From positions 19,753-83,752 of the forward strand of contig VHCM01000001.1 of assembly GCA_016871685.1 (NCBI GenBank): a stretch of 64,000 nt of DNA. Direction: 5' to 3'. The notes below the pieces were generated by a model, which was given only the letters and a program-made list of their open reading frames with translations, made no database searches and was not told where the DNA came from. A program made the translations under genes and the position numbers. The stretch is from Verrucomicrobiota bacterium. GTDB taxonomy: Bacteria; Verrucomicrobiota; Verrucomicrobiia; Verrucomicrobiales; Akkermansiaceae. Positions 25,483-53,816 of this stretch are shown one piece after another; within the stretch, counting starts at the first letter, position 1, and the number at the start of each line of letters is the position of its first letter.

Positions 25483-25926
25483 TCAATGGGCGCCCGGCCA
25501 CTCGAAACGCAGGGTTTCGACACACGCGCCCGATCCGGTCGCGTAGCGCGTGAGGTCCTCGCGCCCCTCGGGCAGCAGCGTGACGAACACCGCGGTTTCC
25601 TTGGCGGATTCGAACTCGATGGAAAGCAAGCCGACCCCGTCATCCCACGGGATCACCACATCGTGCTCGGATTCGCCCGCGGCGAACGGTGTCGACTGCA
25701 GCAGGATCCGGCCCTGCGCATCCGCCACCGCGAGACGCGCGAGCGGATCCACCGTCTTGACGCGTAGCACCGCGGCGACGGATCCGGCGGGCACCGATGG
25801 CGCGGCGGCAACGACGGCGGGTGTCGCGGGACGACTCGTCAGCCGCTGCAGCGGGATGGCGAGCAACGCGAGGCCGACCGCCACACCGGCGGTGCCAAGC
25901 AACGGGGAAAGCGGAAGGCGGCTCAT
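25483..25926 (-). CDS. Membrane-anchored hypothetical protein inside the metal ABC operon
   Basis: 147 aa from ATG 25926, overlapping the SBP stop; N-terminal TM. Confidence 0.65.
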   Translation of the reverse strand: MSRLPLSPLLGTAGVAVGLALLAIPLQRLTSRPATPAVVAAAPSVPAGSVAAVLRVKTVDPLARLAVADAQGRILLQSTPFAAGESEHDVVIPWDDGVGLLSIEFESAKETAVFVTLLPEGREDLTRYATGSGACVETLRFEWPGAH

Positions 25927-26872: not shown

Positions 26873-26890
26873 TTGAATCCTGCCCATCAG

Positions 26891-27142
26891 TTACAGGTCA
26901 TGGAACTCGTCTTCCGTGAGTTCCGCCTGCTTCAGAATGGAACGGAAAGTTCCTGTGGGCACATCCCCGGTGTGCATCGGCAGGTAGGTCTGCCGCCCGT
27001 CACGGTGGCGCAACACGAGATGCGATCCGCTTTGCCGACGTTCCTCGAAACCGGCACGCTTGAGAAGTTTGCGAAAAGGTGTAGCCGGTGGAGCGAGAAG
27101 ATGTTGGCCAGGGCAAGGCGTTGCGATGGAGTGGATTGACAT
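26891..27142 (-). CDS. hicA: HicA-family toxin, orphan, N-terminus possibly degenerate
   Basis: [49 protein letters not shown]. Confidence 0.7.
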
Positions 27143-27271
27143 CCATGACTGAGCAACAACGCAGCCATGGAGGAAAGATTCCGCTTCTCATACAAATCCG
27201 GCGAAGCCGCAAATGTCCCACACCCAACTCCAACCACCGGCTACAGATTTGAGCAAAATGCTCTACAGCTT

Positions 27272-27431
27272 GCGCAACACCTCTTTCGCCTAGTGAGGTA
27301 TGTCACGCGACCTCCATGAATGCAAGGATTGCCTCAGGCTGGACGACGATGGGCTCACCATGGACGCGTTTTTCCTCATTCCACAGATTGACCAGATCGG
27401 CAAGAACGTAGCCTCAACCGGCTGGTTCGGC
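27272..27431 (-). other. Degenerate attC (cassette 5)
   Basis: R'' GCCGAAC, L'' GGTTGAGG and L' CCTCACT present. No GTT at the expected R' position; GTTGCGC lies about 7 nt further on. Confidence 0.5.
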
Positions 27432-27437
27432 ATTTGA

Positions 27438-27737
27438 TCATGTTCCGTAAGTGTTGAATGCCCAAGAGACTCCAACATACAGCGACGCAAGGGAAGATAT
27501 GAGTATGAGCGAGAGAGCAAAGAGCTTTGCCGGTCGCCATCGGGGCTTTGACGTGAAGAGAGGAGATTGGCGAAGCGCCCAGAAATAGGCGGGAAACGCG
27601 AGAACGAGGGGAACAAGGAACACGCCGATCTCGTTTCGAGCGAAGGATGGAAGTGCCTGTGCGTGGCCGTATAGGAGGAATTGGCCCAGCACGTGGGTGC
27701 CGAAGATGCTTCCATAAGCAATGAGGAGTCTCTTCAT
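27438..27737 (-). CDS. Cassette 5: small membrane protein (99 aa)
   Basis: ATG 17 nt inside the cassette boundary; three hydrophobic segments; stop just before attC. Confidence 0.7.
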   Translation of the reverse strand: MKRLLIAYGSIFGTHVLGQFLLYGHAQALPSFARNEIGVFLVPLVLAFPAYFWALRQSPLFTSKPRWRPAKLFALSLILISSLASLYVGVSWAFNTYGT

Positions 27738-27747
27738 ATCATCTCTT

Positions 27748-27820
27748 GCCAAAACGATCAAGCTCACCGGCGGCAATGGAGCGCAGCGGAATTGCCGTCC
27801 GGTGTAGCGCCTTGTTAGGC
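27748..27820 (-). other. attC (cassette 4)
   Basis: GCCTAAC-AAGGC-GCTACACC...GGTGAGC-TTGATC-GTT(TTGGC); canonical box spacing with an extrahelical base. Confidence 0.9.
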
Positions 27821-27862
27821 TGTTCTTGGTATCCAAACGGCTGTCCGTTTTTGATTTCACAA

Positions 27863-29854
27863 CTATATTTTCAACATCCCCAGCCCAGCCAGATACTCAT
27901 AAGTCCTGTCATAATATTCCGACTTTCGCGTCACATCATTCTCCGACCCTTCCGGTACCAGCACCACCATGCCTTGCCGGGCGCGAGTTAAAAGGACGCG
28001 ATAGGCGTTCTTGAGATATGACTTTCTCTCAACCGCCCGTATTCTATTCCACCGCATGGCCTGCTGATTCGGAACCGCGCGAAACTCGTATGTTTCCCAG
28101 CTATTGCCCGCGAATCTGTAGTCAGCATCCCAAGCCACGCAGACCCAGTCGAGTTCAAGCCCCTGCACGTCAAATTCAGTGGCGACGTCTTCCATGAAGA
28201 AAGACGAGCGCACATCATCACGGCCATTAAGAAACCAATGCACTGGGCTGGCTTTGGCCTTTACATCAAGCGCCAGTGGTCTGAGTCGGGCTCCTTTGGA
28301 TGACGCGACTATGCCGTACCTTTCAGAACCATGCGCCTGTGCTCTCAGCCAAGCTTTTGCTTTATGGATGTCGCGTGTGAGCGCCAATGGATAATGCTCT
28401 GAAACTTCGCGCACCATATTGCGGGCAAGTTCGCCTTCCACATCGAGTATATGCTTCACAAGCGATGACACCTTCTCACTGCGGAATGATCGTATCGACG
28501 TCTTCAAATGCAATTCGGGCAAACGGATCACTGCGCTGTGCTGAGCCAACGATTTTTCGGTCTTCTCTGCCCCGAATTCCGCTTCTGCGAGTTGGTCAGA
28601 GACGTAGATCTTCCATTCCGGGAAAGATCGGTACACCGATTCAATCCATTCACCGATTCCAGCCTCGCCGGTGTTGATCTCCTGACCTCCGCCGACCAAG
28701 CAGACTACTACGGCCCAATCCTGGTGACGGTTCATACAAGAGATCAAGAACTCGGGTTCGGACATACGAAAGTTCGGCTGATTCTTCTTTCGCTTCATGA
28801 AATCGATGGTCATGTCGCGAGTCCAAGCCCTTTGGGCTTCATCAAATATTGCAACATGCTCAATGGGTGGATTGATGGGATCATGCAAACCTTCATCGCG
28901 GAAATGGTGAATGATTTGAACGAAAGCCTTCACTTCGCTGAGAGCCTCGCCCTTTCTGAACTTCGCACCCATCTCTCGAGTGCGCAGTACCTTGTCCCGG
29001 GCCAAAGCTTCCTGCAATACGGCGACCAAGGGGCCGTTGCCTGAAAGGTACACGCTATAAAGCTCGTCTTTGGCATCGATATGTTTTGTTGCGATATCCA
29101 GCCCGACAAGAGTCTTGCCAGCGCCGGGAACGCCGGTCACAAAGCAGACCGCCTTTTCGCCATTATCTCTGGTGGTTCGGATGATCTCAGAAACAGATGC
29201 AGAGGTCGTGGTCAGGTTGTCGCCAGCGTCGTTCTTTGTGATCTCCACTACCGAATGGCCGCGATAGAGCGCCAGAGTCGCTTCAATTATGGTCGGAGTC
29301 GGTTTGTACCGGCTCTGCTCCCACTCCAAGCCATTTAACGCCGGCCCTTTCGCCGCTGCCAGGCCCAGAGCGATGGCCTTGGAAAATGTTTTCTCGTTGG
29401 CTTTCAATGGCCTAAAAAGCCTGCCCCTGGCAAGAACTGCCTCTTTAGATGCATGTGTGTCTTGTGCTCCTGTGGCGACCAATACAGGAATGATGAATTT
29501 GTCGTGGCTACCTTCGTGGAAGTTGGAAAGATCTAGGCCATAGTCCATAACCTGATCCAGGTCTTGCGCGTTAAAGGCCTTCTCGCCCACTTTGAATTCA
29601 ATGACAAATATCACCGGCCCGATTAGCACGATTGCATCCACCCGGCGGCCCATGCGCGGGATGGAGTATTCGAAATAGATGTCTCCATCGTGGCCTGCCA
29701 AGCCGAGTTTCAGGCATTTCATCTGGTCGACCCAGGCGTCGCGTTGTTGGGGGGTGAGGTCAAAAGAGTTTACAGTTGCCATTTGGCCGAGGATGGCCGA
29801 TTGGTCAGCAGCGGCGAAGCGGGAGATCGTGGATTTGTAGAAGTAGCGGTTCAT
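27863..29854 (-). CDS. Cassette 4: PD-(D/E)XK-type nuclease fused to DUF2075 (SF1-like) helicase
   Basis: EYSIPRMGRRVDAIVL, IEFKVG, DQVMDY; Walker A GVPGAGKT; Walker B FDEAQR; QGLELDW; YRVLLTRARQG. Confidence 0.85.
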   Translation of the reverse strand: MNRYFYKSTISRFAAADQSAILGQMATVNSFDLTPQQRDAWVDQMKCLKLGLAGHDGDIYFEYSIPRMGRRVDAIVLIGPVIFVIEFKVGEKAFNAQDLDQVMDYGLDLSNFHEGSHDKFIIPVLVATGAQDTHASKEAVLARGRLFRPLKANEKTFSKAIALGLAAAKGPALNGLEWEQSRYKPTPTIIEATLALYRGHSVVEITKNDAGDNLTTTSASVSEIIRTTRDNGEKAVCFVTGVPGAGKTLVGLDIATKHIDAKDELYSVYLSGNGPLVAVLQEALARDKVLRTREMGAKFRKGEALSEVKAFVQIIHHFRDEGLHDPINPPIEHVAIFDEAQRAWTRDMTIDFMKRKKNQPNFRMSEPEFLISCMNRHQDWAVVVCLVGGGQEINTGEAGIGEWIESVYRSFPEWKIYVSDQLAEAEFGAEKTEKSLAQHSAVIRLPELHLKTSIRSFRSEKVSSLVKHILDVEGELARNMVREVSEHYPLALTRDIHKAKAWLRAQAHGSERYGIVASSKGARLRPLALDVKAKASPVHWFLNGRDDVRSSFFMEDVATEFDVQGLELDWVCVAWDADYRFAGNSWETYEFRAVPNQQAMRWNRIRAVERKSYLKNAYRVLLTRARQGMVVLVPEGSENDVTRKSEYYDRTYEYLAGLGMLKI

Positions 29855-29942
29855 CAGATCCTCTCGCCCTTTGGAAACCGCCTTAGAACTACCTCTGTCA
29901 CAAGCATTTTGTCTTCGCTATGCATCAGAATTACTATCAACA

Positions 29943-30070
29943 GCCTAAACGTCAAAGTTGAGCGACTGCCGCCAGAAACGCAAGGTCGAGCGTGAAGAGC
30001 GCGTCTAAATTGCCACAGCGCGTCGAGCGGAGAGGCTGGGCGGCAGTTCGTCTCCAGCGTCTGGTTCGGC
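29943..30070 (-). other. attC (cassette 3)
   Basis: GCCGAAC-CAGAC-GCTGGAGA-CGAACTGCCGCC...GGCGGCAGTC-GCTCAAC-TTTGAC-GTT(TAGGC). Confidence 0.85.
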
Positions 30071-30077
30071 AATGGTG

Positions 30078-30812
30078 TCATTGTAGGGAGCGAATCGAGA
30101 GACCAATAAACTGCCCATACATTAGCAAGGGCACGACTCCGAGGACAGGGCCAACGAACATGCCGACAAGCATCATGCCGCTCGACGGTTCCTGCCGATA
30201 GCGGTCGAGTAGATGCCCAACCGGGTCTCTCCGCTTTTTCACTTGGTCGGCGATCATCGCCACGCACATGAACGCTGCCCAACACAGCGCGAGGCCAATG
30301 AGGATGTAGCCCAAGCAATCCCAGAACGAGGGAAAAGCTGAATCAGGAAGTCGTGAACCGTCAGTGATAGCATAATACAGCTTCTTGGCGATCGGCTTGA
30401 GCATGAAGATGCCCTGAAGGAACACCGGCACACCCGGGGTGTCAGAAATCATCCGACCAACTATTGGGATAAAGCACAAGACCAGCACCAGGAGCATGGC
30501 GAGGAAGCCAGCTTTGAACACAGGCCAGAAGAGCGGACCAATCACCTCTCCAGGTGTGAACCCACCTCCGCCGATAATGGCCGGAAGGCAAAGAAGAACG
30601 AATCCGGATACAGCGATAGCCTGAATCAATGGTCCACCAACAATCACGAGAAAGCAGCCCGCCCCGATGCGTGCGCTCGATTCGCCGTCGCCCATAGTGA
30701 GTCCAGAGATCAGCGGATAAAGGATGGAGGCGATGCTGACTCCCGCCATGCCGACAAGGATATGCCAGTCGAGCAAGCTTGTGATTCCTGCACCTACAGA
30801 TTCCCAGAACAT
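30078..30812 (-). CDS. Cassette 3: multi-TM membrane protein of unknown function (244 aa)
   Basis: About 6 hydrophobic segments; fills the cassette between two attC sites. Confidence 0.75.
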   Translation of the reverse strand: MFWESVGAGITSLLDWHILVGMAGVSIASILYPLISGLTMGDGESSARIGAGCFLVIVGGPLIQAIAVSGFVLLCLPAIIGGGGFTPGEVIGPLFWPVFKAGFLAMLLVLVLCFIPIVGRMISDTPGVPVFLQGIFMLKPIAKKLYYAITDGSRLPDSAFPSFWDCLGYILIGLALCWAAFMCVAMIADQVKKRRDPVGHLLDRYRQEPSSGMMLVGMFVGPVLGVVPLLMYGQFIGLSIRSLQ

Positions 30813-30830
30813 AGTGAGCGCGATGTTGTT

Positions 30831-30890
30831 GCCGAACGCCCCGGTTCAGCGGCGGAACGGAGTGCCGTCCGCTGCAACCGATTGTTCGGC
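30831..30890 (-). other. attC (cassette 2), 60 bp
   Basis: GCCGAAC-AATCG-GTTGCAGC-GGACGG...CCGTTCCGCC-GCTGAAC-CGGGGC-GTTCGGC. Confidence 0.92.
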
Positions 30891-30938
30891 CGGCCTGAGT
30901 TTCCGACGCAATGTACGGCTTGGCTGTACCGTTGCCTA

Positions 30939-31328
30939 TTAGCCTTCCGGGTTCAACGATGAGTGGTGCTCTACGATCTTCCAATCATTCTCTGTCCATT
31001 GATAGACGAACGTGTATCGGGCCTCCACCGTGGCGCGTCCTTCGTCCTTGCTGTCGATCTTGAAGCTGTAGAGTCCGGAGTTGACGGCAACGCCACCCAG
31101 TACTCGTGTGTAGGCTTCCACGGCCGTACCAACGGGATGCTTCGGCAGAAACTCCCTCTCGAAGTACCCGCGTATCTTCCGATGTCCTTTCTTGACGTCG
31201 CCCTTGAGCGTCGAAAGCAAGATCGCATCTCTCGCATAGAGTGCGGTCACTTGAGCCGGGTCGCCGGTCTTCAAAGCTGCGAACCAGCGGTCCAGTTGCT
31301 TTTCGACGTCTTTGATGATGCTGCTCAT
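30939..31328 (-). CDS. Cassette 2: SnoaL/NTF2-like (DUF4440, SgcJ/EcaC-type) protein
   Basis: LDRWFAALKTGDPAQVTALYARDAILL, ARYTFVY, WKIVEHHSS; AGGAG RBS before ATG 31328. Confidence 0.85.
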   Translation of the reverse strand: MSSIIKDVEKQLDRWFAALKTGDPAQVTALYARDAILLSTLKGDVKKGHRKIRGYFEREFLPKHPVGTAVEAYTRVLGGVAVNSGLYSFKIDSKDEGRATVEARYTFVYQWTENDWKIVEHHSSLNPEG

Positions 31329-31370
31329 GAAGTCTCCTAGTCTCGTGTTTGGGAGCGTATGGTTTGTGGA

Positions 31371-31495
31371 GCCGAACGTCGAGGTGTGGCACCGACTACC
31401 GGGAGCGCCACTCCGCAACAGGGTTGAGGGTTGTAGTCAAGGGGGGCATTTAACTCGGGGCGGGTAGTCGGTTGTCCACCACCGCCTTGTTAGCC
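31371..31495 (-). other. attC (cassette 1), 125 bp
   Basis: GGCTAAC-AAGGC-GGTGGTGG-ACAACCGACTACC...GGTAGTCGGTG-CCACACC-TCGAC-GTTCGGC. R'' contains the MTase stop and is complementary to GTTAGCC at 33334-33340. Confidence 0.9.
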
Positions 31496-32725
31496 CTCTT
31501 TTTTCAGGATGACGATTCGATTACTGTTCGTGCCTTTCTTATTGTTGGACACCCCCCAGCAATTCGCGGTCTTCGTGAAGTCTTGGGAGTTAATCATGAT
31601 GCACTCTGGAATGAGACCCGCCTCAAAACCGGCCTTCACAACCTCATTCTCAAGGAGCAAAACACCACTGCGGATCTCACCGACTTCAAAGGCGACAATC
31701 CCGCCAGGCTGAAGGATTCTCTTAAGTTCCTTAAAAACATTGGTCATCCTTGCTACCCACTGATCCAACGACTTGATTTGCCAAATACTGTCTGGATCAA
31801 CCGACAACTCGCAGAACCACATTCTAAGCCAGTTGTCGCCGATGTAATCAACGGTGTCTAAGAACGGTGGTGAAGTCACTACAAGTCTTACTGAATCCGA
31901 GGGAATATCGGAGGTAGAATCGGCTGAGGAGCAGAGTATCTCGTGATCGTGTCGGGAATAATCATGTGGCAATGGATCGCGAAGCAGCTGCTTGGTCTTT
32001 TTGAGAATCAGCGCCTTAGTGTTACGGTATTCAGGAATTTGGTTGCGCTTCGCGTTAATGCGGCGTTGCGCCTCCAATGAAGTTGCTTGGTTTGGTGGCA
32101 GCGTATAGACTGAGAAGAATCCATTGGAATGCCCAGTTAGACGATTACAAGCGACCATCTGAATCCACGCATCAACCAAATCAAATGTGCCTTGTCTCTT
32201 GCGAATGCGAAAGTAAGTGCGCCAGCCATACAACTCGGCCAAGGTATCGGGCGCGAAGAATACAAGAAGATCGGAATCAACCTTGCTTGTCATCGACAGG
32301 GAAACCTCAGTCAAGCGTTCTTCAACCATCTTAAACGTTGGGGGATTCAGGCGGGGGCCTCCAAGAACACCTGAAAGAGGATTGGCATCGTTGCCCATCG
32401 CTCGGCATTGTCTTAATTGTGCTTCAATTAGTGTAGTCCCTCTGCCCATAAAGGGGTCATACACCACGTCTCCGGGGACGCAAAACCTCTCAATGAAGAA
32501 GCCGGGCAACTGTGGCTTGTAGCAGGCTCGGTAGGAGACTTCATGCAGGGAGTGCCCATCCCGTTGCTTGGAAGTCCAGAACTCGTTCTCATAGACTGAG
32601 ACTTTAAGATCAGCGAAATGCCTCTCTTCAGTCCCAGTGAAGCGATTGAACTCAAAGAATGAACGTAGCTCGAAATGAAGTTCGCTAGGATCGCGTAAGA
32701 TCAATCTCTTTTTAGTCTTTGGCAT
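31490..32725 (-). CDS. Cassette 1 gene 2: amino (N4C/N6A) DNA methyltransferase
   Basis: Motif I VYDPFMGRGTT precedes motif IV VTSPPF (alpha-type order). Confidence 0.85.
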   Translation of the reverse strand: MPKTKKRLILRDPSELHFELRSFFEFNRFTGTEERHFADLKVSVYENEFWTSKQRDGHSLHEVSYRACYKPQLPGFFIERFCVPGDVVYDPFMGRGTTLIEAQLRQCRAMGNDANPLSGVLGGPRLNPPTFKMVEERLTEVSLSMTSKVDSDLLVFFAPDTLAELYGWRTYFRIRKRQGTFDLVDAWIQMVACNRLTGHSNGFFSVYTLPPNQATSLEAQRRINAKRNQIPEYRNTKALILKKTKQLLRDPLPHDYSRHDHEILCSSADSTSDIPSDSVRLVVTSPPFLDTVDYIGDNWLRMWFCELSVDPDSIWQIKSLDQWVARMTNVFKELKRILQPGGIVAFEVGEIRSGVLLLENEVVKAGFEAGLIPECIMINSQDFTKTANCWGVSNNKKGTNSNRIVILKKEG

Positions 32726-32726
32726 C

Positions 32727-33317
32727 TTAGATGACTTTCGTGTAGTGAGGCCCGTTGGACAGGATTTTGTGATTCACTGACGCTTCTAGCCTAACGCTTA
32801 CGCTAGTGGAAGGCTCGATGAAGTCCAAGCGTATGGCATCGATTGTTGCGTGTGAGGCAGTTGGGGAATACAAAATCGTCATTAGAAGATGGTGGATGGG
32901 GGCTTTGAACTGGCTTCGCAATTTGGTAGAGGAAGAGGTCAATACTCGTCTATTGGAGTCAGAGGGGTTCCAATCACTCGTGGCCTTAACCTCCAAAGGC
33001 ATCTTAAGCCGTGTTGCGCGTTCCGTGAGGGTTTTGTCTGGGTAACCCGCGCCGGAGCACGGTCCTATCGTATAGACGGATGTATGCCGTTGAAGGAGCG
33101 AAATCGTGTATTCTTCTACTTGATTGCCGATCGATTGGTTTGTGCTCCCCGGTCGAATGGGGCAATTTGTTCCTTTGATGCCCGACGAGGCCACCGCAGC
33201 TACTATGTCCGCTTCAATCGATTGACGTAGTGGAATAGGCCAGGTGTGAATCAAAGGAATCGGGGTGACTCCTTCCCAATTGAGTAGATCGGTGTAGTAA
33301 TCGAAGAGGTTGGGCAT
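32727..33317 (-). CDS. Cassette 1 gene 1: putative type II restriction endonuclease
   Basis: SIGNQVEE helix, GYPD, LEVK form a PD-(D/E)XK pattern; stop is 1 nt from the MTase ATG. Confidence 0.6.
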   Translation of the reverse strand: MPNLFDYYTDLLNWEGVTPIPLIHTWPIPLRQSIEADIVAAVASSGIKGTNCPIRPGSTNQSIGNQVEEYTISLLQRHTSVYTIGPCSGAGYPDKTLTERATRLKMPLEVKATSDWNPSDSNRRVLTSSSTKLRSQFKAPIHHLLMTILYSPTASHATIDAIRLDFIEPSTSVSVRLEASVNHKILSNGPHYTKVI

Positions 33318-33333
33318 TGGATTATTTTTCTTG

Positions 33334-33390
33334 GGCTAACAGTGTTAATAAGTAGCGTGCGGCATTTGTCCTGTAACAACCGCGTGCGGC
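33334..33390 (-). other. Putative attI site
   Basis: Core GTTAGCC at 33340-33334 before the first cassette, with no attC arm upstream; 9-bp direct repeats GCCGCACGC at 33355-33363 and 33382-33390. Confidence 0.7.
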
Positions 33391-33520
33391 TCAACCGGTG
33401 CAAATACGGCACGGAAGGATACTTCTCCGGGAATTCCGTTCATGAAGCGGTTTTTAAACCGCCATGGAGGAACTGCCAAGCAAGAAACGCGGGGCGGTGG
33501 AGGAATGAAAATTTTTCGGC

Positions 33521-34921
33521 TCAGGAAAGATCCAGTGGACTTGGGCCGCCTGCACCGGGCCTTTTCATCACATGCAGGTAGATCATCGTTGTTTCCACAC
33601 TGGCATGTCCCATGAGACTTTGGACAGTGCGGATATCGGTGCCGGATTCGAGTAAATGCGTAGCGAACGAATGGCGCATCGTGTGGCATGTGGCGCGTTT
33701 TGGGATCCCGGCCTTTCGGACAGCGTCCTTGAGTTGGCGCTGCATGGAGGATTCGTGCAGGTGGTGGCGGGCGATCCTGCCGGTGCGCGGATGCGGGCAG
33801 AGGGTGGCGGATGCGAAAATGTATTGCCAGCACCACTCGCGACTGGCGTTTGGCCACTTTCGCAGCAGGGCTTCCGGCATGTGGACGTCACCCGCAGCGA
33901 CGGCAAGATCCTGGAGATGCTTCTCGCGAAGGCGCGACAGATGTTGCTTGAGCTGTTCCTCCAAAGCCCTTGGCAGGGTGACGACGCGGTGCTTGCCGCC
34001 CTTGCCGTCGTGGATGGTGATAGTTCCCTGGCCAAAATCCAGATCTTTGACACGCAGGCGCATGGCTTCCATGAGGCGGAGGCCGCTGCCGTACATGAGC
34101 TGGGCGGCGAGTTTCCATGGGGCTTCGAGGTGGGCGAGGACTGCCCGGACTTCCTCGCGAGTCATCACGACCGGCGGACGGCGCTGGCCGCGGGCGGGAG
34201 TGAGGTGGTCGAGGGTGAATTCCTCAATTCCGAGGACGTTTTTCATGAGAAAGGCCATGGCGTTGAGCGCCTGCTTCTGGGTCGTCGGGGCGACGTTACA
34301 TTCCAGTGCGAGGAAGTCGAGGTAGGCGGTGATGGCGGGCGGTCCGGCAACTTCCGGGGATTGGCCGAGCCTTTGAAAGCAGAAGCGGATGAACCGGCAG
34401 TTCCAATGGACATACGTCTCCTCGGTAGCCATCGCCATGTTCTTGATCCGGATGGTGCGGCGGAGCGAATCAGTGAGCCGCTTGAGTTCCGAATCGGCAT
34501 CGACGACCTGTTCCGGAGTCGGCGTGGGCGAAGGGGGCAAATTGGCCCTTACGCGGATCGATTCACGGGCAACAGTCCGGTGGTCCGGTTCCAAGGAGCG
34601 GGACTGATCAGACAATCCCCGCCAATCGAAAGAGGATGCCCATGCGATGGTGAGGACATCGCAGGCGAGAACACGGGCCGCATCGACCGCCTGGCGATAT
34701 TGCCAATCGGCCAAATGGGCGGAACGGCCAAGGGCATCAAAATACTCCTGGGTGCGTTCTGGTGATTGGTGACCGCGGGCCTTGGTCCACGATTCCGCCC
34801 AGTGGAGATAGTAATCGCGTGAGCCTGGCTTGATGGGCAAGGTGGCAATCCGATGGATGAATTTCATGCGAGCCGGGGAGATATTCCGGCCCGGCTGTTC
34901 ATGCGCAGAGAACAAAGACAT
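33521..34921 (-). CDS. intI: Integron integrase with N-terminal extension
   Basis: GLRLME, GKGGK, HTMRHSFATHLLESG, LMGH, TMIY catalytic set plus the IntI insertion (KWPNASREWCWQYIF...RHHLHE). Start may be 34867. Confidence 0.95.
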   Translation of the reverse strand: MSLFSAHEQPGRNISPARMKFIHRIATLPIKPGSRDYYLHWAESWTKARGHQSPERTQEYFDALGRSAHLADWQYRQAVDAARVLACDVLTIAWASSFDWRGLSDQSRSLEPDHRTVARESIRVRANLPPSPTPTPEQVVDADSELKRLTDSLRRTIRIKNMAMATEETYVHWNCRFIRFCFQRLGQSPEVAGPPAITAYLDFLALECNVAPTTQKQALNAMAFLMKNVLGIEEFTLDHLTPARGQRRPPVVMTREEVRAVLAHLEAPWKLAAQLMYGSGLRLMEAMRLRVKDLDFGQGTITIHDGKGGKHRVVTLPRALEEQLKQHLSRLREKHLQDLAVAAGDVHMPEALLRKWPNASREWCWQYIFASATLCPHPRTGRIARHHLHESSMQRQLKDAVRKAGIPKRATCHTMRHSFATHLLESGTDIRTVQSLMGHASVETTMIYLHVMKRPGAGGPSPLDLS

Positions 34922-34936
34922 GGAGCACCCATATAG

Positions 34937-34950
34937 TGTTCATAAGAACT
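34937..34950. promoter_or_regulatory. Putative LexA box in the intI promoter
   Basis: TGTTC-ATAA-GAACT, one mismatch from TGTTC-N4-GAACA, 16 nt upstream of ATG 34921. Confidence 0.6.
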
Positions 34951-34968
34951 GCACAAGTTCAATATTTA

Positions 34969-35231
34969 TGGCGGAGAGGATGGGATTGCCTGCGCTCCGC
35001 TCCGGCCAAGCGGGATGCGGCCTCCTCCTCCGGAGGCCGGAAGGAAAAGATTTCGCCGCTACGAGCGGCGATGGCGTTGACTTCGTTTCACTCCGTCCAA
35101 ACCCGTGTGACTCGCGTTGCTCGCACCCAGACGTCGCCGCTGCGAGCGGCTTCCTGTTTTCAAACCCACGGTGAGTTTTACCCCACGTCCGATTTCGAAT
35201 CGGGTGCCTTCAACCACTCAGCCACCTCTCC
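34969..35231 (-). tRNA. tRNA-Ser(CGA) interrupted in the T-loop
   Basis: 5' part GGAGAGG...anticodon loop TTCGAAA...long variable arm...GTGGGTT (35231-35163); 3' part AATCCCATCCTCTCCGCCA (34987-34969). Acceptor and T stems pair across the gap. Confidence 0.85.
34988..35160. mobile_element. ~170-nt palindromic REP/MITE-like insertion in the tRNA T-loop
   Basis: Hairpins at 35018-35039, 35053-35071 and 35136-35150; 17-nt near-identical direct repeat at 35053 and 35134. Boundaries uncertain by a few nt. Confidence 0.7.
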
Positions 35232-35353
35232 TTGGCGCTGCGACGCGGAACCGAATCATGGGCGGTCGGCTGCGGTTTGGTTTGTAAAGCAGGGAATGGC
35301 GGCGGAAACTGGGCGGATTCCACGCGGATCGGCATTGTGCGGCGGGCGGGAGC

Positions 35354-53636: not shown

Positions 53637-53816
53637 CCGGCGCTGCGGCTGCGATTTCGTCGTTGCGCGCTGCTGCGGATGCGGCATCCTGCGGGTGCCG
53701 TCAGGGGCCGTGGAGGTCCGGCAGGCGAACCCCGCCAGGCCTTGATTGGAGCAACGGTAGTTTGTCCGGGCTTGCCGCGGATTCCCTGGCGGCGCTTTTT
53801 TTCCGCGCGTCCACCT

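Follow-up and report, generated by a model that had tools for sequence, protein, structure and literature searches.

Group I and group II introns of tRNA genes possess a recognisable catalytic core, are at least 200 nt long and usually lie in the anticodon loop, and cis-mobilisable elements (CIMEs) are non-autonomous derivatives of tRNA-targeting islands that leave direct repeats of the tRNA 3' end. The repetitive extragenic palindromic (REP) sequences of the Proteobacteria, together with the bacterial interspersed mosaic elements (BIMEs) and REP doublet-forming hairpins (REPINs), are short, non-coding, hairpin-bearing intergenic repeats, the copy number of which is very variable (PMC3733652). 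The locus analysed here is a tRNA-Ser(CGA) copy at 34969-35231 of a 64,000-nt stretch of DNA (the window; C1:19753-83752, where C denotes contigs, G genomes and L loci) from a Verrucomicrobiota bacterium of the Akkermansiaceae. The two parts of the tRNA are separated within the T-loop by 171 nt (35158-34988), and this sequence feature is confirmed to be real. The locus probably (at a rough probability of 0.6) represents a redundant, inactivated copy of tRNA-Ser(CGA) that carries two tandem repeat units in its T-loop and lies at the junction with an integron-type island.

Like the interrupted or split tRNA genes already described (group I introns in the anticodon loops of bacteria, archaeal introns in non-canonical places and the split tRNAs of Nanoarchaeum), the locus consists of two tRNA parts separated by extra sequence. 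It differs from them in that the interruption lies in the T-loop of a bacterial gene and contains no detected intron core, and in that the copy has suffered damaging changes and the genome has an intact one elsewhere. It is probably not a working split tRNA and the reading of the locus itself is deflationary, namely that it would be a defunct, spare tRNA copy bordering an island and no novel type of tRNA intron. The repeat family to which the insert belongs is, by contrast, tied to the tRNA T-loop sequence about twenty times above chance, and it accompanies a stereotyped local duplication of the 3' end of Ser, Lys and Pro tRNAs which is unexplained by the usual integrase, REP or miniature inverted-repeat transposable element (MITE) models.

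The split tRNA-Ser(CGA) copy and its intact paralogue

The 5' part of the split copy contains the acceptor 5' strand GGAGAGG, the D-arm, the CGA anticodon arm, the variable arm (GUGGG/CUCAC) and the T-stem strand GTGGG. Both halves of the tRNA are present and the stems named in the first-pass annotation, which had been made from the sequence without database searches, do pair. The T-stem GTGGG/CCCAT, however, holds a G49·U65 wobble and is not fully Watson-Crick, CCCAT being a C-to-T change relative to the functional gene. In the 5' part of the T-loop (TTTGAA) the universally conserved C56 is replaced by T56. ARAGORN found zero tRNAs in the whole window and zero on the 263-nt stretch even with the intron option, and the Rfam tRNA score of the split locus (18.8 bits) is below the gathering score of 29. 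When the insert was removed and the flanks were joined in silico, ARAGORN reported tRNA-Ser(CGA) with either choice of junction. Nothing indicates that the insert is removed at the RNA or DNA level, as had initially been considered; the copy carries T56 and G·U65.

The host genome is a metagenome-assembled genome (MAG) of 2.27 Mb in 189 contigs (95.6% complete, 0.19% contamination), in which ARAGORN identified 44 tRNAs and one tmRNA. An intact tRNA-Ser(CGA) was identified by the same program at C100 97-186, with the T-loop TTCGAAT and G-C at the T-stem pair 49:65. The first 69 nt of the split copy and of the intact gene are 100% identical. The block shared by C1 and C100 (window 35159-35332) is 175 nt long and ~94% identical, including ~100 nt upstream of the tRNA, and the flanks beyond it are unrelated. 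As C100 has no other near-identical counterpart in the assembly, it appears to be a second locus rather than a strain variant. A second Ser(CGA) gene had been named as one of the signs that would mark the split copy as a pseudogene, and on that point the search was positive. The earlier idea that wobble by tRNA-Ser(UGA) alone backs up the split copy was not upheld, since an intact gene with the same promoter region lies on C100. Synteny in 29 congeners did not reveal an ancestral Ser(CGA) locus: the C1 and C100 flanks do not stand beside tRNA-Ser(CGA) in these genomes, and the nucleoside-transporter neighbourhood is likewise not conserved among them.

The insert consists of two repeat units, which bears out an early suspicion of tandem insertion. 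Unit 1 comprises AACAGG, the hairpin GCCGCT-CGC-AGCGGC, GCGAGCAACGCGAG and the 3' motif GACGGA-GTGAAAC-GAAGTCAA. Unit 2 comprises hairpin A (35053-35069), an A/T-rich spacer, hairpin B and the 3' motif GCCGGA-GCGGAGC-GCAGGCAA, the terminal AA of which overlaps the AA of the T-loop. Hairpin B (GGCCTCC-GGAGGA-GGAGGCC, 35019-35038) is the third hairpin of the insert. The 17-nt direct repeat reported at first, GCCGCTCGCAGCGGCGA (35134-35150) and GCCGCTCGTAGCGGCGA (35053-35069), is a single hairpin that occurs twice with 16/17 identical positions. The heptamer GGGTTTG had been thought to be repeated from the junction; its second copy at 35098-35104 is real but is no junction copy, because it is part of ..GCTTGG/GGTTTGG-ACGGAG.., a motif conserved in the repeat unit, and because the window contains the heptamer seven times. 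Modules of the unit-2 type are also found in G008 (L002, L014), G011 (L003), G136 (L113) and G232 (L137), and the outer stem of hairpin B covaries (GGCC/GGCC, GGAA/TTCC, CAAAA/TTTTG and CAGCC/GGCTG). The insert as a whole folds no better than shuffled sequences (DNA z = -1.57). At 171 nt, and with no significant Rfam family, it is too short for a group I or group II intron, as was first proposed; no intron family was present among Rfam matches up to E = 10, and its position is in the T-loop and not in the anticodon loop. Archaeal-type tRNA introns have a bulge-helix-bulge motif at each junction and require a splicing endonuclease; the organism here is a bacterium, as indicated by its bacterial signal recognition particle RNA and its Verrucomicrobiales relatives.

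Features of the split tRNA-Ser(CGA) locus and the adjoining island (window coordinates)
Feature	Position	Strand	Evidence or content
tRNA-Ser(CGA) 5' part	35159..35231	minus	first 73 nt of class II tRNA, ends TTTGAA
tRNA 3' piece	34969..34987	minus	AAT (T-loop 58-60) + CCCAT + CCTCTCC + G + CCA
Repeat unit 1, 82 nt	35077..35158	minus	86-90% identical to units on C39 and C42
Repeat unit 2, ~90 nt	34986..35076	minus	comparison with units in other genomes
Upstream (promoter) region common to split copy and C100 locus	35232..35332	minus	sequence comparison
Spacer from CCA to integrase start, 47 nt	34922..34968	minus	conserved TTGAAC..GTTC-N4-GAAC box
Integron-type tyrosine integrase, 466 aa	33521..34921	minus	Pfam Phage_integrase 2e-37, Phage_int_SAM_4 5e-19
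Low-GC island	26890..34968 (about)	minus	GC 0.48-0.58 compared with 0.64-0.69 in flanks

A repeat family associated with the tRNA T-loop

BLAST of the insert against the host genome revealed two further sites only, after tRNA-Ser(GGA) (C39) and tRNA-Ser(UGA) (C42). Both of these tRNA genes are intact with the same T-arm as tRNA-Ser(CGA), and the units lie directly downstream of them. In 40 relatives the C39 module was not matched over its full length, but its 3' part recurs. The family was counted in 301 Verrucomicrobiales genomes using the pattern GACGRARNGRARCGNAGTCAA (at most one mismatch), with the reversed pattern as a control. The 3' motif was found in 63 of the 301 genomes, which represent 22 of the 57 genera, and reaches 38 copies in a single genome; the control gave no more than one match per genome, in 15/301 genomes. 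Rfam searches of the locus and 12 related loci returned true tRNAs and chance matches only, and no description of the repeat family was found in a full-text literature search. This short repeat family of the Verrucomicrobiales, present in the Akkermansiaceae and at least one further family, therefore appears to be undescribed, in keeping with the first-pass statement that no named family was known for the insert. The view that the insert is a non-autonomous, T-loop-preferring element also held, as it belongs to a REP/MITE-like family with a strong T-loop preference.

The features of the unit were read from 74 sampled copies in their context. Units are non-coding, 75-95 nt long and of several subtypes, and end with GACGGA, a mini-hairpin of the form N1N2-GNA-N2'N1' and GGAGTCAA. 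The 3' mini-hairpin is present and a clear 5' hairpin is found in some subtypes only. The 2-bp stem around the GNA loop covaries (GCGAAGC, GTGAAAC, ACGAAGT, ATGAAAT), with Watson-Crick pairing in 62/74 and 69/74 units, a level reached in 0/10000 shuffles, although the sequences are related and kinship qualifies this comparison. The commonest forms are GCGNAGC, and more copies of GCGAAGC occur elsewhere in the modules. GCGNAGC is known as an ultra-stable DNA mini-hairpin (PMC13037366), and the DNA-type mini-hairpins suggest a single-stranded intermediate. The left flanks of the units end in ..GAA or ..CAA, so that the unit seems to be joined after ..(G/C)AA; the AA common to the left flank and the unit end (..GTCAA) may belong to the element or reflect a duplication of 2 nt. 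Tandem units were found as three copies at 74-nt spacing in L132 and as pairs in L002, L110, L122 and C1, and 7-nt microsatellites frequently contain or adjoin the dispersed copies. When 23 copies were examined within 20-kb stretches, every one proved to be intergenic. Units are scarce between divergent genes (4/39), and the dispersed units in tandem gene contexts show no sense preference (14 sense and 10 antisense).

The sampled units were followed by T-stem-like TCCC, TCCA or CCCC in 28 of 74 cases (~38%), compared with ~2% expected. The tRNA-linked sites have the form TTCGAA-unit-AATCCC, i.e. the unit interrupts a tRNA T-loop, and this target (between TTCGAA and T) is by far the commonest recognisable one. 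For 30 tRNA-linked units, the same strand carries an intact tRNA 80-500 nt upstream, namely one for Ser (GGA, UGA, CGA, GCU), Lys (UUU) or Pro (CGG, UGG). Behind the unit comes the 3' part of the local tRNA itself from A58, which is often 100% identical and extends 0-39 nt into the trailer. The order of the module is stereotyped: the tRNA is followed by an antisense T-arm piece (loop YGAGAA), a small hairpin, the T-stem 5' strand with TTYGAA, one or more units and the 3' copy (AAT, T-stem 3' strand, acceptor 3' strand and CCA). The stems of the antisense piece match the local tRNA, including acceptor-specific bases in L116, L137, L013, L103 and L107. Its loop is not the complement of the local T-loop and is conserved as YGAGAA across tRNAs and genera.

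As both copies are local and the length of the repeat varies, a foreign attP cannot have supplied them. The module looks like a locally templated direct-inverted-direct copy, judged from its sequence pattern. No 'empty' arrangement of inverted and direct T-arm copies lacking a unit was found in the genus, and the 8 matches to such an arrangement in the 301 genomes look, by eye, like ordinary class II tRNAs. Modules are present at at least 5 of 29 tRNA-Ser(CGA) loci in the genus; others carry unrelated islands. Split copies also recur, as in G008, where two split copies of tRNA-Ser(UGA) with their own promoters stand in tandem before the intact gene; these lack the full acceptor 3' strand. By creating pseudo-tRNA fragments and contig breaks beside tRNA genes, the modules affect the annotation of MAGs, and they mark sites where islands, including integrons, accumulate.

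In many of the tRNA-Ser trailers of the genus (L170, L176, L180, L182, L185, L099, L014) a conserved terminator-like hairpin, N-CACCCCA..TGGGGTG-N, follows the tRNA. TGGCGTTT comes after this trailer hairpin, and the stem can extend to pair with the CGCCA 3' end of the tRNA itself.

The units are probably mobile, since their copy number varies from 0 to 38 among congeners, a unit resembles the other units of its genome more closely than it does those beside the same tRNA in other species, and different subtypes occupy orthologous tRNAs. Like REP, BIME and REPIN sequences, they are short, non-coding, hairpin-bearing and intergenic, often form tandem or inverted pairs, vary in copy number between relatives and are rare between divergent genes. 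Unlike REPs, they are longer (75-95 nt) and are not simple palindromes with a GTAG/CGTC head, and a strong T-loop target preference is not known as a REP trait. The HUH or REP-associated tyrosine transposase (RAYT) gene flanked by the same hairpins, for which a search had been recommended, was not found. Genes with PF01797 (Y1 HUH) are present in all 18 genomes tested, whether rich in units or free of them, and no unit was located within the flanks examined (up to ~1.5 kb) of the 12 best PF01797 loci.

The units resemble the palindrome-associated transposable elements (PATEs) derived from IS200/IS605 in having a hairpin near the 3' end, a fixed short tail (..GGAGTCAA), an apparent joint after ..NAA and no terminal inverted repeats. 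They differ from these in that they show no orientation bias with respect to GC skew, and in that Y1_Tnp occurs equally in unit-free genomes and not next to units; local direct and inverted duplication of the target is also not known as an IS200/IS605 feature. In contrast to MITEs of the DDE type, the ends of the unit (AGCAG.. and ..GGAGTCAA) are not inverted repeats, and the repeats flanking tRNA-linked copies are variable in length (17-58 nt). Features in common with tRNA-targeting islands and CIMEs are the flanking repeat of the tRNA 3' end, the islands stacked behind the element and, in the window, an adjacent integrase gene. Unlike in CIMEs, both copies of the repeat are local and share isoacceptor-specific bases and as much as 39 nt of the trailer; A58 is the constant start of the repeat, its end being variable, and units also occur far from any tRNA or integrase.

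Two further candidates were rejected. A hammerhead ribozyme (GAUGAG..GAAA..GUC, read by eye) was dismissed on the absence of C3/U4, on variants that break the core and on the lack of an Rfam ribozyme match, and an integron attC site was dismissed as 0/74 inspected units have RYYYAAC ... GTTRRRY boxes closing an imperfect palindrome.

Origin of the split copy and the adjoining island

In C39 and C42 the intact tRNA is followed by an antisense T-arm (GGGTGGGAT-GAGAA-CCCAC), GGA, GTGGGTTTGAA, one unit and a perfect 18-19 nt repeat of the 3' end of the local tRNA (AATCCCACCCTGTCCGCCA or AATCCCACCCCCTCCGCC). Compared with the C39 pattern, C1 has two units and is without CGAATCCCACCCTCTCCGCCA, the antisense piece and GTGGGTT, the difference being exactly the segment between two GTGGGTT sequences. 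The window lacks both the intact 3' part of the tRNA and the antisense piece, ~51 nt in all. The T56 variant of C1 (GTGGGTTTGAA) is that of the downstream pseudo-T-arm copies of C39 and C42, whereas the true genes have C56. A deletion of ~51 nt in a C39-like ancestor is favoured because C1 has T56, as in the pseudo-copy, and not the C56 of the true gene. Neither the usual arrangement, which spares the tRNA, nor the units after both other tRNA-Ser genes, nor the integrase gene 47 nt downstream had been recorded in the first-pass annotation.

In the proposed sequence of events, the likeliest cause of the split would be the loss of ~51 nt from a C39-like arrangement by deletion between its two GTGGGTT repeats. 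The loss of the intact 3' part would be tolerated because an intact tRNA-Ser(CGA) exists on C100, and the integron-type island would then have come to adjoin the leftover CCA. Where the tRNA is needed, the unit lies in a locally derived second 3' copy just downstream and not in the gene.

Several points weigh against this interpretation. Sequence alone cannot give the direction of the 51-nt difference, and an insertion into a C1-like state may account for it. The 69-nt tRNA part has 0 substitutions, compared with 4 mismatches and a 5-nt indel in the ~100 nt upstream. An unchanged 5' part beside a promoter region that has diverged by ~5% is only marginally unexpected (roughly P ~ 0.06) and could mean gene conversion or residual function; it fits none of the readings considered well. 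As the source is a MAG, it is conceivable that C1 and C100 belong to different strains. With regard to the mobility of the units, which is judged from their distribution, no fresh insertion polymorphism was seen between near-identical strains and no transposase is linked to the units. An IS200/IS605-type mechanism is argued against by the lack of a replication-strand bias, as GC skew on the unit strand is positive in 12/23 cases (local skews up to 0.19).

The island that adjoins the CCA of the split copy holds the integrase gene and cassette-like genes with boundaries of the GGCTAAC / GTTAGCC type, and ends at a HicA-like open reading frame (ORF) beside a metal ABC transporter gene. The integrase carries a ~148-aa N-terminal extension, its residues 148-464 match IntI-like proteins of Methylobacter and others, and its homologues are found across Verrucomicrobiales MAGs (Akkermansiaceae, Luteolibacter, Prosthecobacter). 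Upstream of intI (L021-L037) only ~40 nt are conserved across species, with a CTTGAA-TGTTC-N4-GAAC-like box, and the sequence further upstream differs. In three other species (L025, L048, L059) a near-identical stretch leading into a homologous intI begins directly after the CCA of an intact tRNA-Ser, the tRNA genes concerned being those with the anticodons CGA, GGA and UGA. The 3' ends of tRNA-Ser genes thus serve the intI element family as a landing place. No far-end att repeat of the island was found on the 98-kb contig; a match at window 25835-25872 was rejected as a chance similarity inside a coding region.

The proximity of the integrase raises the alternative that the insert is an attL arm, in which case site-specific recombination at the GTGGGTT of the T-arm would have brought in the island, and both the 171 nt and the 3' tRNA piece would belong to it. 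The integrase gene starts 47 nt after the CCA, homologous intI elements adjoin the three tRNA-Ser species mentioned above, and tRNA 3' regions are reportedly classic targets of integrases. The attL reading is nevertheless very unlikely, as the same units occur on C39 and C42 without this integrase, the 3' piece has the CGA-specific acceptor strand while its equivalents on C39 and C42 match each local tRNA, the sequence upstream of the ~40-nt promoter box of the homologous intI elements is unrelated, and the 98-kb contig contains no matching attR (antisense piece with intact 3' part). It is still more improbable that the split gene is functional, the insert being cut from the transcript like the intervening sequences of rRNA to give a ligated or two-piece tRNA-Ser(CGA). 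Such a gene would account for stems that can all pair, for the retained promoter region and for a 5' part which is 100% identical to the functional gene compared with ~94-95% upstream, and units are associated with genes for the PF05635 '23S rRNA intervening-sequence protein' in G003 and G232. It is at odds with the loss of C56 and the G·U pair at 49:65, with the existence of an intact paralogue, with the incomplete acceptor 3' strand of the analogous G008 copies and with the normal arrangement, which keeps the unit outside the functional tRNA; the insert also has no strong closing helix to bring the cut sites together. Least credible of all is an assembly or binning artefact, i.e. a chimeric join of repeats. 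The fragmentation of the MAG (189 contigs) and the fact that related repeats broke the assembly at C39, C94 and C100 are compatible with this, but the locus is ~43 kb from the nearest end of its 98-kb contig and the architecture recurs, split copies included, in many assemblies that are independent of one another, among them some with contigs of megabase scale.

With respect to the modules in general, it can be tentatively suggested, as a less than probable reading, that an undescribed system reads the tRNA T-arm as a structure and that the recurrent module is its product or working site and not debris. In one form of this system, insertion of a mobile element would spare the essential gene by copying the 3' end of the local tRNA in the order direct, inverted, direct. 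In the other, a folded single-strand recombination site would mimic the 3' end of a tRNA gene and serve IntI-like integrases. Either form, if true, would amount to a novel use of tRNA genes by mobile DNA that a whole bacterial order has conserved. The more specific proposal that the module is a folded site at which IntI-like integrases place or accrete elements at tRNA 3' ends, and not a transposon scar, is unlikely. In such a site the single-stranded antisense piece would pair with the split T-arm copy, the unit being looped out, to reproduce the 3' end of the tRNA gene in duplex form, interrupted at its centre by a 2-nt bubble (TTCGAAT opposite ATGAGAA), comparable to attC and the attP hairpins of CTX phage. 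It would agree with antisense stems that track the local tRNA, the constant YGAGAA loop and the lack of unit-less copies in the genus. Foreign-looking DNA directly follows the 3' copy in all three modules of the genome (the integron on C1, an element starting GCAGGCGGGATT on C39 and an AT-rich stretch on C42), IntI-like genes are present in 14/16 unit-bearing compared with 5/12 unit-free genomes, units lie just after intI in G003, and an intI fragment adjoins the module in L099. However, the unit has no attC-like R''/R' boxes or overall palindrome, G271 (12 units) and G262 are without a close IntI homologue, most dispersed units are far from an integrase or tRNA, and in L025, L048 and L059 the same intI element adjoins an intact tRNA-Ser without a module. 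The links of units to intI or PF05635 genes are loose. It is likewise unlikely that the module encodes a small RNA, made by read-through from the tRNA promoter, closed at its ends by an acceptor/T minihelix of the antisense piece and the 3' copy, and processed by tRNA enzymes, with the GGA-rich unit as the functional part. A long-range helix equivalent to the 12-bp stack of acceptor and T-stem with NCCA at the 3' end in young copies, the covarying stem and conserved GGAGGA loop of hairpin B, and the constant co-orientation of modules with the tRNA all point in this direction. In older copies (L014, L099, L170, L182, L137), though, the T-stem part is preserved but NCCA and the acceptor part have decayed, a terminator-like hairpin stands between the tRNA and many modules, dispersed units lack an orientation preference, the mini-hairpin of 2 bp and a GNA loop is a motif of DNA and not of RNA, and there is no Rfam match.

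Other elements beside units and tRNA genes

The third element at tRNA genes of the host genome, starting GCAGGCGGGATT(C/T)ATTCCCTAA.., is located at C100:1-126, C39:1-141 and C94:5623-5774. It is joined exactly after the CCA of tRNA-Ser(CGA), of the 3' copy behind tRNA-Ser(GGA) and of tRNA-Pro(CGG), respectively, and breaks the assembly at two of its three sites. On C94 the shared sequence continues into ..ATGACCCGGAAACGCAAACGCCGCAGTG, and in the homologous stretch of the congener L190 an ORF beginning MTKKRKRRS.. was read by eye, possibly an integrase gene. A different arrangement is found at C64:479-622, where a ~48-nt direct repeat, from the anticodon loop to the 3' end, begins 28 nt after tRNA-Met; the repeats have next to nothing between them and make up a classic integrase scar.

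Two loci of G003 combine units with integrase and four-helix-bundle genes. In L004 (G003:C189) a unit and then a PF05635 four-helix-bundle gene come after an intI-like gene, and behind these the 3' end of intI is present in duplicate together with another unit; in L017 (G003:C61) the middle of intI is replaced by an inverted unit and the same four-helix-bundle gene. The 20-kb stretches L225-L244 (G289, G271) have an unusually strong local GC skew of up to ±0.19. At L121 (G314) a group II intron domain (RF00029, 45 bits) was detected at 2657-2731, ~1.2 kb from the tRNA-Ser module. The sole Rfam match of the window at gathering score is a bacterial small signal recognition particle RNA (RF00169, 50.5 bits) at 53700-53793 on the plus strand.

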